Of a stretch of DNA of 64,000 nt, positions 4,601 through 42,288 are shown one piece after another (position 1 is the first letter of the stretch; the number at the start of each line of letters is the position of its first letter). Source of the stretch: Escherichia coli (lineage in GTDB: Bacteria > Pseudomonadota > Gammaproteobacteria > Enterobacterales > Enterobacteriaceae). The notes under the pieces are model-generated. The model made no database searches, was not told where the DNA came from, and saw only the letters and a list, made by a program, of their open reading frames with translations. Location of the stretch: assembly GCF_003790525.1 (NCBI RefSeq), contig NZ_CP033635.1; one strand, given 5' to 3'. A program made the position numbers and the translations under genes.

Positions 4601-5195
4601 ACCGCAGTGGGAACCGGTGTTGACTGAGTGGATCACGGCTGTCCTCCAGGCACCTCTCAATGAAACGGGTGTTAGCCTGAATCAGCTTTCCGATCGCGAT
4701 AAACAGGTGGAGATGGAGTTTTACCTGCCGATTAGTGAACCGCTTATCGCCAGCCAGCTTGATGCACTAATTCGCCAGTTTGACCCGCTATCCGCTGGCT
4801 GCCCGCCGCTGGAGTTCATGCAGGTACGCGGCATGTTAAAAGGCTTTATCGACCTGGTATTCCGCCACGAAGGGCGTTATTACCTGCTCGACTATAAATC
4901 CAACTGGTTGGGTGAAGACAGTTCGGCTTACACCCAACAGGCTATGGCAGCGGCAATGCAGGCACACCGCTATGATCTGCAATATCAGCTTTATACCCTG
5001 GCGCTGCACCGTTATCTGCGCCATCGCATTGCTGATTATGACTATGAGCGCCACTTTGGCGGCGTTATTTATCTGTTCCTGCGTGGCGTTGATAAAGAAC
5101 ATCCGCAACAAGGGATCTACGCGACCCGACCCAACGCCGGGTTGATTGACCTGATGGATGAGATGTTTGCCGGTATGACCCTGGAGGAGGCGTAA
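1653..5195 (+). CDS. recB: RecBCD exonuclease V beta subunit (helicase/nuclease)
   Basis: 1180 aa from ATG 1653 ([13 protein letters not shown]), Walker A AGTGKT, UvrD-type helicase motifs; length as recalled for K-12 RecB; 1-nt overlap with recD. Confidence 0.95.
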
Positions 5196-7021
5196 TGAAA
5201 TTGCAAAAGCAATTACTGGAAGCTGTGGAGCACAAACAGCTACGCCCGCTGGACGTGCAGTTTGCCCTGACCGTGGCGGGAGATGAACATCCTGCCGTCA
5301 CCCTCGCGGCGGCACTGTTAAGTCATGATGCCGGAGAGGGACACGTTTGTTTGCCGCTTTCACGACTGGAAAATAACGAGGCATCGCATCCGCTGTTGGC
5401 GACCTGTGTCAGTGAAATCGGTGAGCTACAAAATTGGGAAGAATGCTTGCTGGCTTCACAAGCGGTCAGCCGGGGAGATGAACCAACGCCGATGATCCTC
5501 TGTGGCGATCGTCTTTATTTGAATCGCATGTGGTGTAACGAGCGCACAGTGGCACGCTTTTTCAACGAAGTGAATCATGCCATTGAGGTTGATGAAGCTC
5601 TACTGGCGCAAACCCTGGACAAACTTTTTCCAGTAAGCGATGACATTAACTGGCAAAAAGTGGCGGCGGCAGTGGCGCTGACGCGGCGGATTTCGGTGAT
5701 TTCCGGCGGTCCTGGCACCGGTAAAACGACCACCGTAGCGAAGTTGCTGGCAGCCTTAATTCAAATGGCCGACGGAGAACGCTGCCGTATCCGTCTGGCT
5801 GCACCAACGGGTAAAGCTGCCGCGCGCTTAACCGAATCTCTCGGCAAGGCTTTGCGCCAGTTACCGCTGACCGATGAACAAAAGAAACGCATTCCGGAAG
5901 ATGCCAGTACTTTGCACCGATTGCTGGGCGCACAGCCGGGTAGCCAGCGTTTACGTCATCATGCCGGTAACCCGCTGCATCTTGATGTGCTGGTAGTAGA
6001 TGAAGCGTCAATGATCGATCTGCCGATGATGTCGAGACTGATAGACGCCTTGCCCGATCATGCGCGAGTGATCTTTCTCGGCGATCGTGATCAACTGGCC
6101 TCGGTTGAGGCTGGGGCTGTGCTGGGCGATATTTGTGCTTATGCCAATGCCGGCTTTACCGCCGAGCGTGCCGGGCAGCTAAGCCGCCTGACGGGAACTC
6201 ACATTCCGTCAGGAACTGGCACAGAAGCGGCATCTTTGCGCGACAGTCTCTGCCTGCTGCAAAAAAGCTATCGTTTCGGCAGCGATTCTGGCATTGGTCA
6301 GTTAGCTGCGGCGATTAACCGTGGTGATAAAATGGCAGTGAAAACCGTTTTTCAGCAGGATTTTACTGATATCGAAAAACGGCTTTTACAGAGCGGCGAA
6401 GATTATATTGCGATGCTTGAGGAAGCTCTTTCGGGTTACGGACGTTATCTGGATCTGCTGCAAGCGCGTGCCGAGCCGGATTTAATCATTCAGGCGTTCA
6501 ATGAGTACCAGCTTTTGTGCGCCCTGCGGGAAGGGCCGTTTGGCGTGGCTGGACTGAATGAGCGAATTGAGCAGTTTATGCAACAGAAGCGCAAAATTCA
6601 TCGTAATCCGCACTCTCGTTGGTACGAAGGCCGACCGGTGATGATTGCCCGTAATGACAGCGCGCTTGGGTTGTTTAATGGCGATATCGGTATTGCGCTG
6701 GATCGCGGGCAGGGGACGCGCGTCTGGTTTGCGATGCCGGACGGCAATATTAAGTCTGTGCAACCGAGTCGCTTGCCAGAGCACGAAACGACGTGGGCGA
6801 TGACGGTACATAAATCGCAGGGATCGGAGTTCGACCATGCGGCGTTGATTTTACCGAGCCAACGCACGCCAGTAGTAACACGAGAGCTGGTTTACACTGC
6901 GGTGACCCGCGCGCGTCGCCGTCTGTCGCTGTATGCCGATGAGCGCATTTTAAGTGCGGCAATTGCCACGCGCACCGAGCGGCGCAGCGGTCTGGCGGCG
7001 TTGTTTAGTTCACGGGGATAA
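5195..7021 (+). CDS. recD: RecBCD exonuclease V alpha subunit
   Basis: 608 aa, Walker [12 protein letters not shown]1 helicase motifs; follows recB. Confidence 0.95.
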
Positions 7022-7029
7022 ACGTAATT

Positions 7030-7070
7030 GCCGGATGCGACGCACGAGTGTTACGCATGTCGCATCCGGC
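7030..7070. repeat. REP-like palindrome (gccggatgcgac ... gtcgcatccggc) between recD and argA
   Basis: Perfect 12-bp inverted repeat with GCCGGATGCGRCG core typical of enterobacterial REP elements. Confidence 0.55.
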
Positions 7071-7082
7071 GATTTTCATCGC

Positions 7083-8414
7083 TTACCCTAAATCCGCCAT
7101 CAAAACTTTGGATTTACGCTGGTAGTTGTACAACTGCTTTTTGCTCTCGGGCAGTAAATCAATATCCACTGGGGTAAATCCACGTTCCTGGAACCAGTGA
7201 ATACTGCGCGTGGTCAGCACAAACAATTTGCTTAAGCCGCTCTGCTTCGCCTGAGCGGCAATGCGTTCCAGCAGAACCTCGCCCCGTGATGAGCTGCGGT
7301 AATCCGGGTGAACTGCCACACAGGCCATTTCCCCAATCTTCTCTTCCGGGAACGGATAGAGCGCGGCGCAGGCAATAGTCGTGTTATCGCGCTGAATAAT
7401 GGTGAATTTGTCGATTTCCATCTCCAGCTGCTCGCGAGAACGGCGTACCAGAATACCTTGCTGCTCCAGTGGGCGAATCAACTCCAGAATGCCGCCAATA
7501 TCGTTGATTGTTGCGCGACGAATTTGCTCGGCGCTTTCCATCACAATCTGCGTACCGATACCGTCACGTGAGAACAACTCTTGCAACAGCGCGCCATCTT
7601 CCTGATAACTGATTAAATGACAGCGACGCACGCCGCTGCGGCAGGCTTTCACTGCGCCACGCAAAAAGCGCACCGTACCGGAGTTGTAATCGCCTTTCTC
7701 TTCCTGGGCTTCTACCCGCGCTTGCGCTTCGTTAGGGAAAAGTTCTGAGACAATATCACCGTCGTCATTAGTGACGCCCTGTGAAGAGCAAAAACCAATC
7801 ATCTTCTCAGCTTTCAGTTTGATGGCCAGTTGAGTGGCAATCTCTTCCGAGGTCAGATTAAAGCTCTCGCCAGTGACTGAAACCGCGACCGGCCCCAGCA
7901 GCACTATCGCACCGCTGTCCAGTTGACGATGAATCGCATCTTCGTCAATCCGCCGGATACGCCCGCTATGGCAGTAATCCACACCGTCATCCACGCCCAG
8001 CGGCTGGGCAATAATAAAATTGCCACTGACGACGTTGATATGCGCGCCCTGCAGCGGCGTGTTATTGAGACTCATCGACAGGCGAGCAGTAATATCCAGT
8101 TGCAATGTTCCCGCAGCCTGCTTCACCAGTTCCAGTGTTTTGGCGTCGGTCACGCGTATATTTTTGTGATATAGCGGTTCGTGGTGATGCGCTGCCAGAT
8201 TTGCATCGATCTGCGGGCGCGCTCCATAGACCACGACCAGACGGATGCCGAGGCTGTGCAGCAACCCGATATCATTAACGATACTGGAGAAATTCTCATG
8301 CTCAATGGCTTCACCGCCGAGCATTATGACAAACGTTTTTCCCCGGTGGGTATTGATATAGGGAACCGAATGGCGGAATCCCTCGACCAACTCGGTTTTA
8401 CGTTCCTTTACCAC
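7083..8414 (-). CDS. argA: N-acetylglutamate synthase
   Basis: 443 aa if started at the GTG giving [13 protein letters not shown], as recalled for E. coli ArgA; the ORF-track ATG 22 codons upstream is probably an artefact. Confidence 0.9.
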
Positions 8415-8645
8415 GGCACACCTCTTTGCATGATTATTCGAAATTATTGTATTTTTATTCTGTTTTTTCGCAGGGTGCAAGTGTAAATTTTATGCGGGAG
8501 CGACTTTTTTATCAGTAATACCGTGAATATAAAAAGAATGTTTACCGTTTTATAGATGACAGATTATGCGTCTTTCGCTAAAGTTTCCGGTCAAATTGGT
8601 CGTTTACTTGTTACACAGCTTAGATTTCTTTTGCTCGGGAGAGGC

Positions 8646-28753: not shown

Positions 28754-29299
28754 AGCATCCTCTTAGGTTCAGAAGCTTAAGCACGTAATCGGTTATGTTT
28801 TCAAAAGTGCAAAACCAGCGAGTTCGGGCTTCATATCAGTAAATATTTGCCTGTCTGAAATGAACTCATGGATTCATTTTCAAATAAAAAACGCTCTGTA
28901 ATATGACGGCGGTCACACTTATTAGCCGGAAGGTGACTTTATGTGACTACCATCACTTTAATAATCGAAATTTCATGCCCGTTTCAGAAAATAAATCATA
29001 AAAAACACAAACCAGATGACCGTATTAATTGTTTGTGCCGAAAACGGGCATTCCTGGCAGGGAAGAGTAGAAAAATGACCGTTTTGATAAATATTTTTAA
29101 GAGCGGTCATTTTTAATGGGGTTATAAAAAGAGAAATTGCAGTTATTTACTGTGATTAGTTGAACCAGGTCACAAAATATAAGCTTGTGAATTTCTTTCT
29201 GGTTAATCAGGAAGAATATGGTGAGTAATTAAACGGCTAATTCAATAGTGTGAAAGGAACAACATTATTGCCCTGTTTTGAATCAGAGAGAGGTAGCTA

Positions 29300-40051: not shown

Positions 40052-40501
40052 ATGGCGGAAATTGGTATTTTTGTCGGCACTATGTACGGAAATTCGCTGT
40101 TAGTGGCGGAAGAAGCGGAAGCAATTCTGACCGCGCAGGGCCACAAAGCAACGGTATTTGAAGATCCTGAATTAAGCGACTGGCTGCCCTATCAGGATAA
40201 GTATGTTCTGGTGGTTACGTCCACGACCGGGCAGGGCGACCTTCCTGATTGCATTGTGCCGCTCTTTCAGGGAATTAAAGATACCCTGGGCTTCCAGCCG
40301 AATCTGCGTTATGGCGTGATTGCGCTCGGCGACAGTAGTTATGTGAATTTCTGCAATGGCGGCAAACAGTTCGATACCTTGTTGCAGGAACAGAGCGCTC
40401 AGCGAGTGGGAGAAATGCTGTTGATTGACGCCAGTGAGAACCCGGAACCGGAAACGGAATCAAATCCGTGGGTCGAACATTGGGGCACGCTGTTGTCCTG
40501 A
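40052..40501 (+). CDS. yqcA: Flavodoxin-like protein
   Basis: 149 aa short-chain flavodoxin fold. Confidence 0.85.
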
Positions 40502-40553
40502 TACGTTCAGCGAGCGGTAAATGCCGTTTTAGCAGTGCTGAATCGAATCTTTT

Positions 40554-40610
40554 CAGGCAAATGCCAGTAAAAACTGCTTCATAGCGCGGATTTTTACTGG
40601 CGTTTGCCTG
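40554..40610. repeat. 20-bp near-perfect inverted repeat (caggcaaatgccagtaaaaa / tttttactggcgtttgcctg) with 17-nt spacer
   Basis: Seen directly in sequence 50 bp downstream of yqcA; 19/20 complementary. Confidence 0.6.
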
Positions 40611-40935
40611 GAGTCAAGCGATCCATTTCATACTCTTCTTTATTTCTTCGATTTAACCCTTCCTTTCTTGTTTTTGTTTTCATTTCCGTGAAGTGGATTC
40701 CACCGTCCAGGGCTAATGCCAAAATCGGGCCTCATTGAACGCATTAATGTTGTGTTGTTGCACGGTGAGCCGCTATGGCGCGCTTTTTATACTGCTATTG
40801 CCAGATATAAACACGCGCCGTATTCGGCGAACGACCTATAAAAACGGCAAAAAACACCCTACGTCACCTCTGATTTCCTGGCGATGTCGCAGTCCAGAGT
40901 GAGCGTGGCTAACGCGAATTTTCAGGAGTGCAACA

Positions 40936-42288
40936 ATGAGTTCTTTAAGTCAGGCTGCGAGCAGTGTGGAAAAACGCACGAATGCTCGTTACTGGATAGT
41001 GGTGATGTTGTTTATCGTCACATCCTTCAACTACGGCGACCGCGCTACGCTCTCTATCGCCGGTTCGGAAATGGCCAAAGATATCGGCCTTGATCCTGTG
41101 GGAATGGGCTATGTGTTCTCTGCTTTCTCATGGGCTTATGTTATCGGGCAGATCCCTGGTGGTTGGTTGCTGGATCGTTTTGGTTCAAAACGCGTCTACT
41201 TCTGGTCGATCTTTATCTGGTCGATGTTTACCTTGCTGCAAGGCTTCGTCGATATCTTTAGTGGATTCGGCATTATCGTTGCCCTGTTTACGCTGCGCTT
41301 CCTGGTCGGGCTTGCTGAAGCGCCCTCTTTCCCCGGCAACAGTCGCATTGTTGCGGCCTGGTTTCCGGCGCAGGAAAGGGGAACGGCGGTGTCGATTTTT
41401 AACTCCGCTCAATACTTCGCAACGGTGATCTTCGCGCCGATTATGGGCTGGCTGACGCATGAAGTGGGCTGGTCACACGTCTTTTTCTTTATGGGCGGTC
41501 TGGGCATTGTCATCAGCTTTATCTGGTTGAAAGTCATCCACGAGCCAAATCAACATCCGGGTGTAAATCAGAAAGAGCTGGAGTACATCGCCGCGGGTGG
41601 CGCGCTGATCAATATGGATCAGCAAAACACCAAAGTTAAAGTGCCGTTCAGCGTGAAGTGGGGGCAGATCAAACAGCTGCTCGGGTCACGGATGATGATC
41701 GGCGTTTATATCGGTCAGTACTGTATCAACGCCCTGACTTACTTCTTTATTACCTGGTTCCCGGTTTATCTGGTGCAGGCGCGTGGGATGTCGATTCTGA
41801 AAGCGGGCTTTGTGGCTTCCGTTCCGGCGGTTTGCGGTTTTATCGGCGGTGTGCTGGGTGGGATTATTTCCGACTGGCTGATGCGCCGCACGGGATCGCT
41901 GAACATTGCGCGTAAAACACCGATCGTAATGGGCATGTTGCTGTCGATGGTGATGGTGTTCTGCAACTACGTCAACGTTGAGTGGATGATCATCGGCTTT
42001 ATGGCGCTGGCCTTCTTCGGTAAGGGCATCGGGGCGCTGGGTTGGGCAGTAATGGCAGATACCGCGCCAAAAGAGATCAGCGGTCTTTCCGGTGGCCTGT
42101 TCAACATGTTCGGTAACATTTCTGGCATCGTCACGCCAATCGCAATTGGTTATATCGTTGGCACGACTGGCTCCTTTAATGGGGCGCTGATTTATGTTGG
42201 TGTTCATGCCTTAATCGCGGTACTGAGCTACCTGGTGTTGGTGGGCGATATCAAGCGTATCGAGTTGAAACCTGTTGCGGGGCAATAA
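40936..42288 (+). CDS. gudP: Glucarate/galactarate MFS transporter
   Basis: 450 aa 12-TM MFS, first gene of gudPXD. Confidence 0.9.

Follow-up and report, generated by a model that had tools for sequence, protein, structure and literature searches.

A conserved single-copy inverted repeat between yqcA and gudP of Escherichia coli and its possible origin in a transcription terminator

Results

The yqcA-gudP intergenic region

The window analysed here is a stretch of 64,000 nucleotides of Escherichia coli DNA, 100% identical to the sequence of strain SMS-3-5 (NC_010498.1), and all coordinates refer to it. The following features lie at, or border on, the intergenic region between yqcA and gudP.

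40052 to 40501, + strand: yqcA (flavodoxin), the last gene of yqcC-truC-yqcA.
40537 to 40552, no strand assigned: candidate Cra/FruR-like operator, GCTGAATCGAATCTTT, just ahead of the hairpin and in agreement with gcTGAAtCGaTTCAgc at 12 of 16 positions.
40551 to 40613, + strand: full RNA hairpin including extensions closed by G·U pairs, about 27 pairs, -40.1 kcal/mol.
40554 to 40573, + strand: left arm, CAGGCAAATGCCAGTAAAAA, holding the palindromic motif GGCAAATGCC (D) and an A-run.
40574 to 40590, + strand: spacer or loop, CTGCTTCATAGCGCGGA, with at most a weak inner stem of 4 bp (-3.9 kcal/mol).
40591 to 40610, + strand: right arm, TTTTTACTGGCGTTTGCCTG, a T-run followed by GGCGTTTGCC (D').
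40614 to 40634, no strand assigned: invariant box, TCAAGCGA-N5-TTCATACT, 3 nt past the right arm; TCAAGnGA-N5-TTCAnAnT in all genera.
40635 to 40676, + strand: pyrimidine-rich, G-poor tract, a possible Rho loading region judging by its composition; 8 of 42 columns vary in Escherichia.
40765 to 40793, + strand: predicted gudP promoter, -35 GTGAGC (40765-40770), 17-nt spacer, -10 TATACT (40788-40793), the hexamers being read from the sequence.
40936 to 42288: gudP, the downstream flanking gene.

The inverted repeat described in the initial annotation was confirmed, with the arms and the flanking genes as claimed. Read directly from the sequence, the arms (caggcaaatgccagtaaaaa at 40554-40573 and tttttactggcgtttgcctg at 40591-40610) are complementary at 19 of 20 positions and are separated by a spacer of 17 nt (40574-40590); the hairpin starts 52 nt past the yqcA stop codon and 325 nt ahead of the gudP start codon. 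In K-12 MG1655 (NC_000913.3), whose positions equal 2963036 minus those of the window, the hairpin occupies 2922426-2922482 and the candidate Cra-like box 2922484-2922499. The single position that does not form a Watson-Crick pair, T40562 opposite G40602, is a U·G wobble in RNA of the + strand and a C·A mismatch in RNA of the - strand. A repeat search also returned a looser pair of 35-nt arms (40539-40573 and 40591-40625, 77%). When the 64-kb window was scanned for inverted repeats with arms of 20 nt, no more than one mismatch and 3-40 nt between the arms, the 20-bp repeat was the only one, and 60 dinucleotide shuffles of the window contained none; nor does the window hold a second copy of the arm sequence at up to 3 mismatches.

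A single-copy element without annotation

The element is present in 5425 of 5426 complete E. coli genomes, identical or nearly so and at one locus in each; a 69-nt query hit two “places” in each genome because the palindrome also matches itself on the opposite strand. Nothing is annotated beneath it in complete E. coli genomes, including the K-12 RefSeq record. No phage match was found and no genuine plasmid match, the three “plasmid” records retrieved being chromosomes of 4.8-4.9 Mb. When the E. coli sequence was searched against Rfam 15 at permissive thresholds no family was found for the hairpin, CsrB upstream being the only real match; the hairpin's sole hit was a chance-level one to mir-653 (22 bits against a gathering score of 77). 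The same search of the intergenic region from seven other genera gave no match. In the literature search yqcA and gudP were never mentioned together, and the papers that name yqcA do not concern this element, which is unannotated and, within the searches made, undescribed.

A near-perfect inverted repeat might be taken for the remnant of a mobile element (the terminal inverted repeats of an IS or MITE) or for a member of a family of the REP or ERIC type, and a decayed mobile-element end had indeed been one of the annotation's three suggestions. Nothing except the inverted repeat itself speaks for such an origin. Membership of the REP/BIME or ERIC/IRU families was rejected on the one locus per genome in 5425 E. 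coli genomes, and a pair of IS/MITE ends on the lack of copies elsewhere and of a target-site duplication, the flanks (ATCTTTT and GAGTCAA) forming no direct repeat. Single copy, no plasmid or phage copies and no flanking direct repeat together rule these readings out for practical purposes; furthermore, the element occupies orthologous positions in different genera and purifying selection acts on its arms (see below), so that the suggestion of a mobile-element end must be regarded as extremely improbable. The annotation's remark that the stem is not REP-like stands, since the single-copy hairpin is dissimilar to the REP-like palindrome found in the same window at 7026-7074. A likeness to the REP/BIME sequences that stabilise mRNA 3' ends lies in the situation, an extragenic palindrome close past a stop codon that could block 3'-exonucleases; unlike them, the hairpin is single-copy and without the REP consensus, and its stem is much longer and more perfect.

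Folding of the transcribed strands

RNA of the + strand between 40530 and 40640 folds with an energy of -47.4 kcal/mol (z = -6.6), which none of 200 shuffles reached; the fold of the - strand is weaker (-40.8 kcal/mol, z = -5.0). On the + strand the helix reaches 40551-40613 through added G·U pairs, and four inner pairs form as well (C40574-G40589 to C40577-G40586). In E. coli this gives 24-27 nearly unbroken pairs of about -40 kcal/mol, and it is clear that the stem is much longer than an intrinsic terminator needs, as had been proposed. With its stability (-40.1 kcal/mol, z = -6.6) it has the stable, G+C-containing stem-loop of an intrinsic terminator, and with 24-27 pairs it also has the length of an RNase III-substrate duplex (about two helical turns, at least 20 bp).

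A conserved module upstream of gudP

For comparison, 80 yqcA loci were taken from other species, among which the yqcA-gudP arrangement is widespread. A module of about 125 nt lies just upstream of the gudP regulatory region in around 35 taxa, which include Escherichia, the Citrobacter koseri/amalonaticus group, Salmonella, Silvania, Kosakonia, Phytobacter and Superficieibacter, and a metagenome scan added eight further examples. The module begins with (A/G)CTGAATCG(A/T)GTTAGC, followed by D (GGCnnnnGCC), GTAAAA and a variable stem-loop, and ends with TTTTTAC, D' (GGCRTTTTCA), five nucleotides and the invariant box. In Salmonella, D and D' are 10 bp closer together. Three otherwise conserved stretches of the module, GTTAGC, TTTTCAC and TCACA, are degraded in Escherichia. 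Separate from the module, several genera have a hairpin of their own straight after the yqcA stop codon.

The long hairpin has z scores of -5 to -9 in Escherichia and of -4 to -7.5 in the Citrobacter group, and is weaker in Superficieibacter. Kosakonia, Silvania and Phytobacter have the flanking motifs conserved but no significant long helix. In almost every genus the same place is occupied by a short inner stem, the sequences of which are unrelated. The annotation had called for its palindrome to be sought in other Enterobacterales: the core helix recurs in Citrobacter, Salmonella, Superficieibacter and the metagenomic relatives, with compensatory changes. The repeat is therefore neither absent from relatives nor a match to a REP or ERIC family, the outcomes that had been named as speaking against the proposal.

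Covariation and selection in the arms

Covariation was assessed in 24 sequences over a core helix of 15 pairs (AAAUGCCNGUAAAA / UUUUACN'GGCRUUU). The core is paired in 87% of cells, compared with 37-52% in controls in which one strand was slid, and its covariation score of 0.192 was reached by none of 500 shuffles (0.104±0.013). At one core pair 9 sequences have A-U, 7 have C-G and 5 have U-A, as expected of compensatory change, and an adjoining pair has gone from G-C to C-G in two metagenomic loci (L093 and L095), both of which have perfect 19-bp stems with CC/GG in place of the AG/CT of E. coli. De novo prediction with RNAalifold gave the identical register. The sequence of the A-run and of the U-run is itself conserved, with no flipping of the pairs, which fits termination signals rather than mere pairing partners. 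As to the strand, the U·G at pair 54:94 is conserved in 13 of the 24 sequences and would be tolerated on the + strand only; G·U outnumbers A·C on that strand by 27 to 11 when cells are counted, but by columns the figures are 7 and 8, so that most of the asymmetry comes from one base pair and is weak evidence for the strand.

Selection was gauged from the share of variable columns in each segment among seven Escherichia lineages, as listed here.

Both arms: 7 of 40 columns (17%), 2 of 20 in the left arm and 5 of 20 in the right.
Loop: 12 of 17 columns (71%), a neutral-like rate.
Four-fold degenerate sites of yqcA: 34 of 60 (57%).
The 35 nt past the yqcA stop codon: 24 of 35 (69%).

The arms are thus held at about one third of the neutral rate (Fisher p = 1.5e-4 against the yqcA four-fold sites), and in strains E69 and MOD1 the loop sequence has been swapped outright. 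Constrained arms around a free loop argue against a decaying relic; the repeat is real, single-copy and kept by selection. Conservation begins abruptly at 40537, the 35 nt past the stop codon evolving neutrally, and covers the whole intergenic stretch from there to gudP; therefore the conservation of the arms cannot, by itself, separate a role in RNA from one in DNA.

A possible route from terminator to long stem

In other genera the hairpin has the geometry of a terminator: an A-run, a stem-loop and a U-run, then GUUUUCA. There the right arm runs on as GGCGTTTTCATAGGG, and the homologous stretch GGCRTTTTCA is the U-run after the stem; in Citrobacter, for example, a stem of about -22 kcal/mol is followed by GUUUUCAU. 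The inner hairpin is terminator-like according to the scan: in Citrobacter on either strand, in Superficieibacter on the + strand and in Phytobacter on the - strand only. The Escherichia version of the right-arm stretch is GGCGTTTGCCTGGAG. The trailing U-run has become GUUUGCCUGG, which pairs with CAGGCAAA upstream; three or four clustered substitutions abolish the U-run and add seven pairs, lengthening the stem to 24-27 bp.

Right after the E. coli stem there is no U-rich tract, GAGUCAAGCGAUCC following instead, and the internal U-run is preceded by just the stem of -3.9 kcal/mol. As a canonical intrinsic terminator the E. coli element consequently fails, through the missing U-run and the weak inner stem. 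The scan found no + strand terminator between 40300 and 41000, its only terminator-like match there being on the - strand (40829-40816), and from the yqcA stop codon to the gudP promoter nothing else resembles a terminator. The element resembles bidirectional intrinsic terminators in several respects: an A-run, stem-loop and U-run that yield a hairpin and U-tract on either strand, a position at the end of an operon, a stem that keeps its pairing despite fast sequence evolution, and homologues that pass the terminator scan in Citrobacter and Superficieibacter. It differs from them in that the E. coli U-run lies inside the stem, with nothing U-rich after the helix of 24-27 bp, and in that the neighbouring genes are co-directional rather than convergent and no 3' end has been reported.

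The control region of gudP

That the gudPXD promoter region lies downstream of the repeat, as annotated, holds for the promoter predicted at 40765-40793: the orthologous GTGAGA-17-TATACT was flagged in Citrobacter and Superficieibacter and is conserved in all aligned taxa. The distance from the invariant box to the gudP -10 is 174-176 bp across taxa. From the box to CGTGAA of the proximal gudP region it is fixed at 73-74 bp (63 in two taxa) while the sequence in between is unconserved, and this is a signature of phasing on DNA.

The candidate Cra-like box was compared with the published Cra consensus gcTGAAtCGaTTCAgc (PMC5888115), which is matched at 12 or more of 16 positions at only 5 places in the window. 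In other genera the box scores 12-13 of 16, and within Escherichia 3 of its 16 columns vary. In K-12 the best sites upstream of known targets score 13 and 12 (fruB), 12 (ppsA) and 12 (pykF), so that the candidate appears to match the consensus as well as these Cra (FruR) operators do; unlike them it is separated from the predicted gudP start by about 255 bp and adjoins no identified promoter. A CRP weight matrix was built from 40 sites (PMC12871828), all of which score at least 9.8 bits; with 2.7 bits in E. coli and 5-7.6 elsewhere, the invariant box was rejected as a CRP site. Small ORFs across the element, on either strand, were also rejected, being unconserved between E. coli and Citrobacter.

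Discussion

The reading that we favour, tentatively, is that the repeat is a terminator-derived hairpin of + strand RNA, with which the yqcA operon transcript ends or is processed and which insulates gudP. Of the three options originally offered, the covariation and the terminator geometry in relatives best support the one of an RNA structure at the 3' end of yqcA. RNA polymerase leaving yqcA would transcribe the element, and the RNA would fold; in E. coli the hairpin is the first strong structure past yqcA, and the only one before the gudP promoter. With its U-run buried in the stem and an inner stem of only -3.9 kcal/mol, the E. coli version would no longer terminate transcription in the canonical way. 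Since that geometry is lost, the hairpin is probably a 3' stem-loop or a duplex accessible to RNase III. As a stable 3' stem-loop it might protect the yqcA message from 3'-exonucleases once Rho-dependent release had taken place in the adjoining downstream tract, which is rich in pyrimidines and poor in G and where the GC skew is -0.45 to -0.63 (40610-40684). Alternatively, the long duplex could serve as a processing site of the RNase III type. Either way, transcription from upstream would be kept out of the gudP control region.

In having a stable hairpin followed by a C/U-rich, G-poor tract the element is like the protective stem-loops found where Rho-dependent transcripts have processed 3' ends; it is unlike them in that the yqcA/gudP region is not among the Rho-dependent regions of Adams et al. 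2021. The complete Term-seq and Rho tables of that study (PMC7815308) list nothing for yqcA, truC or gudP, whose expression may be low, and the Term-seq tables have no entry at K-12 coordinates 29223xx-29226xx; the supplementary tables of SMRT-Cappable-seq and TERMITe likewise have no entry for the three genes. Some of the comparative results count against a 3' structure of the yqcA transcript. The long hairpin is non-significant in Kosakonia, Silvania and Phytobacter, and in Phytobacter the inner hairpin is terminator-like on the - strand only. Furthermore, in the several genera where a separate hairpin already follows the yqcA stop codon, there is no obvious need for another 3' structure.

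Conserved, phased DNA motifs surround the hairpin, and for this reason a protein-binding palindrome, another of the annotation's options, remains a live rival, though an unlikely one. The repeat would in that case be a DNA operator whose arms (GGCAAATGCC and GGCGTTTGCC, 43 bp apart) bind a regulator of gudPXD, possibly CdaR, which is known to activate its own gene and PgudP (PMC7544201), and it would form the distal part of a phased architecture together with the candidate Cra-like operator and the invariant box. The spacing of the invariant box, 73-74 bp or one helical turn less at 63 bp, is what such an architecture would produce, as is the D-D' distance shortened by 10 bp in Salmonella; D, D', the Cra-like box and the invariant box are also kept as primary sequence where the long hairpin is non-significant. 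The pattern GC[AGT]WWTGC occurs 4 times in the 434-bp intergenic region (40557, 40600, 40712 and 40794) and 21 times in the 64 kb, but this 8-mer was defined post hoc, after the data had been seen. In K-12 the region upstream of cdaR and the garP-garD intergenic region share an identical 14-mer, GCATTTGCACAATG, the gar region has an inverted pair of such motifs 42 bp apart, and D' of other genera, GGCATTTTCAC, matches GGCATTTGCAC at 10 of 11 positions. Despite the striking 14-mer, the candidate CdaR 11-mer derived from it is not enriched between yqcA and gudP (2 matches of at least 8/11, where 1.8 are expected), so that the assignment of the arms as CdaR boxes is still a weak lead. Two independent protein sites would not be expected to covary as the arms do, through changes that keep complementarity (A:T, T:A, C:G and CC/GG); that the variable inner segment can be folded into a stem in almost all genera also counts against an operator. 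A different objection to the preferred reading of a functional RNA hairpin is that the long stem could be without function, having arisen when template switching during replication “corrected” a quasi-palindrome and so extended the old terminator stem. A cluster of substitutions that creates complementarity between arms is a known signature of templated quasi-palindrome mutation, and the three or four substitutions that fall in a 7-nt part of the right arm (GTTTTCATAGG having become GTTTGCCTGGA) together create just such complementarity to the left arm; the degradation in Escherichia of the otherwise conserved GTTAGC, TTTTCAC and TCACA is also in keeping with it. Quasi-palindrome correction accounts well for the origin of the long stem but not for the later constraint, for across the seven Escherichia lineages the arms have since changed at about one third of the neutral rate while the loop drifted freely, and the element is identical or nearly so in 5425 E. 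coli genomes; as a full account it is improbable.

Other transcripts might carry the hairpin. It could belong to a short + strand transcript distinct from that of yqcA, ending a small RNA that starts at the Cra-like operator or acting as an attenuator in a gudP leader initiated upstream. Such a transcript would explain why the genera with their own hairpin directly past yqcA still keep the module, and why conservation sets in abruptly at 40537 after 35 neutral nucleotides; the Cra-like operator is placed as one overlapping a start site would be, and in the Citrobacter-like sequences hexamers resembling a -10 (TATCCT, TATTCT and TATACT) lie 7 nt upstream of CTGAATCG. Upstream of the module, however, no sigma-70-like promoter was found on the + strand in E. 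coli, Salmonella, Phytobacter or Superficieibacter, there is no conserved -35 element, and neither an Rfam family in seven genera nor a Term-seq 3' end here matches such an RNA; we hold a separate transcript to be rather improbable. Very unlikely, in our estimate, is that the palindrome overlaps a promoter of the - strand (TTGACT, 16 nt, AAAAAT, 40617-40590), with the invariant box as a CRP site near -42, the Cra-like box as a downstream operator and an RNA antisense to the 3' end of yqcA as the product. The site was flagged by the promoter scan, its TTGAC is invariant in all genera and the box is laid out 5-6-5 like a CRP site (TATGAaatggaTCGCT), but the -10 is unconserved even within Escherichia (AAAAAA in E69 and MOD1) and absent from other genera, and the CRP matrix scores of the box (above) fall short of those of real sites.

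A broader proposal, which we likewise consider rather improbable, is that of an undescribed composite module that bounds the gudPXD regulatory region on its far upstream side and has the hairpin as its hinge. It would consist of a Cra operator, a nested terminator whose stem can be extended and the phased invariant box, and would integrate upstream transcription, carbon status sensed through Cra and the glucarate regulator. It might work as a retroregulatory switch like sib, in which terminated and read-through yqcA transcripts would fold differently and only the latter would form the RNase III duplex, or else through a DNA loop joining the distal and proximal sites. In the sib/tI retroregulator of phage lambda a terminator hairpin sits within a longer helix whose outer arms pair only in read-through transcripts, giving a duplex of at least 20 bp that suits RNase III, downstream of the regulated gene. 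The element studied here is alike in its layout, a nested terminator within a longer potential helix; cleavage by RNase III and two classes of transcript are features of sib, and the resemblance is one of layout only.

Taken as a whole, the element is unannotated yet fairly ordinary, most likely a terminator-derived hairpin that ends the yqcA transcript and shields the control region of gudP; terminator-derived intergenic RNA hairpins and insulators are of a familiar kind. If this is correct, it would be a clear natural case of a U-tract turned into extra stem under continued selection, and would show how terminators become hairpins of RNA stability or processing. The practical value is modest, that of a defined element for annotators. 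The analysis also marks out an unannotated, strongly constrained control region of 400 bp upstream of gudP, which holds the candidate Cra operator and the phased invariant box, in front of genes for the use of glucarate and galactarate, a pathway that is important to enterobacterial growth in the inflamed gut.

The conserved module between yqcA and gudP

The inverted repeat between yqcA (flavodoxin) and gudP (first gene of gudPXD) lies in a conserved module of about 125 nt that also holds a Cra-like box and an invariant box. The elements of this region, in window coordinates, are as follows.

Elements of the yqcA-gudP intergenic region
40516-40526, copy of the GG(C/T)nnnnGCC motif, GGTAAATGCC
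40537-40552, candidate Cra/FruR-like operator (consensus match), GCTGAATCGAATCTTT
40556-40565, copy of the GG(C/T)nnnnGCC motif, GGCAAATGCC
40599-40608, copy of the GG(C/T)nnnnGCC motif, GGCGTTTGCC
40614-40634, invariant box, TCAAGnGA-N5-TTCAnAnT
40684-40689, CGTGAA element of the proximal gudP region
40711-40720, copy of the GG(C/T)nnnnGCC motif, GGCTAATGCC
40788-40793, gudP -10

The candidate Cra/FruR operator directly adjoins the hairpin and agrees with the published consensus (PMC5888115) at 12 of 16 positions, a match equal to that of the highest-scoring sites in front of fruB, ppsA and pykF. The box is kept as ACTGAATCG(A/T)GTTAGC across more than 15 genera; the accessible literature showed no connection of Cra with either gudP or yqcA. 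The GG(C/T)nnnnGCC motif is present four times in the intergenic region, and every taxon examined keeps the fourth copy ahead of gudP, even where the hairpin module is missing.

The hairpin loop (40574-40590) is hypervariable. In two Escherichia lineages, strains E69 and MOD1-EC7003, it has been almost wholly swapped, reading CTTGCAAATGTGACGGT and CTCGCAAATAAGACGGT in place of CTGCTTCATAGCGCGGA, and yet both arms are identical despite this replacement. In E. coli strain E1, a 20-nt unit, GTAAATGCCGTTTTAGCGGT, occurs four times in tandem immediately 5' of the Cra-like box. This expansion corresponds to about 40517-40536 of the window and sits in the stretch after the yqcA stop codon, which evolves neutrally.

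Spacing between the invariant box and the gudP promoter

The distance from the invariant box to the CGTGAA element is constant at 73-74 bp, except in two taxa where it is 63 bp, that is, one helical turn shorter; the distance to the gudP -10 is 174-176 bp. The stretch separating the invariant box from the proximal gudP elements shows no conservation across genera.

Loss of gudP and of the module

Loss of gudP or of the whole of gudPXD has occurred repeatedly and independently. E. coli EC6563 retains the hairpin and the invariant box, joined to barA-side sequence with a breakpoint at about 40658 of the window; in two Citrobacter species the left part of the module is fused to a 3' fragment of gudD. 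One E. albertii locus is without the module, and the hairpin that follows yqcA there is a different one. In four loci of the Citrobacter freundii complex the intergenic region is shorter (about 345 bp) and the hairpin module is absent; in its place, within the first 100 nt or so after yqcA, is a REP-like element, GCCGGGTCAGGCGAAGCCGCCACCCGGC.

Other elements in the window

Only one other inverted repeat in the window has 16-nt arms with at most one mismatch; it is a REP-like palindrome flanked by convergent ORFs at 5195-7021 (+) and 7083-8480 (-). The weight matrix built in this analysis from 40 CRP sites (PMC12871828) predicts four strong CRP-like sites, which score well inside the range of real sites. 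The invariant box was also considered as a CRP site and was rejected, its score being too low.

Other elements
7026-7074, REP-like palindrome, TGCCGGATGCGACGC ... GCGTCGCATCCGGC
28900-28919, CRP-like site, 12.5 bits
28940-28959, CRP-like site, 16.2 bits
29157-29176, CRP-like site, 13.6 bits
37966-37985, CRP-like site, 13.1 bits
38521-38880, CsrB small RNA upstream of yqcC (Rfam RF00018, 383 bits); its terminator also gives a weak score on the opposite strand

Candidate CdaR motifs

Two further loci, each in its own coordinates, carry such motifs.

Motifs at cdaR and gar
L087, about 1900-1916, 14-mer upstream of K-12 cdaR
L083, about 7037-7052 and 7081-7094, garP-garD intergenic motifs

The 14-mer GCATTTGCACAATG is identical in the cdaR upstream region and the gar intergenic region, and the latter holds one more copy in inverted orientation, GCATATGCACATAA, at a distance of 42 bp from the first. 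In the proximal region of gudP, TTGCACGGTG adjoins the -35. The 14-mer is a candidate CdaR operator.
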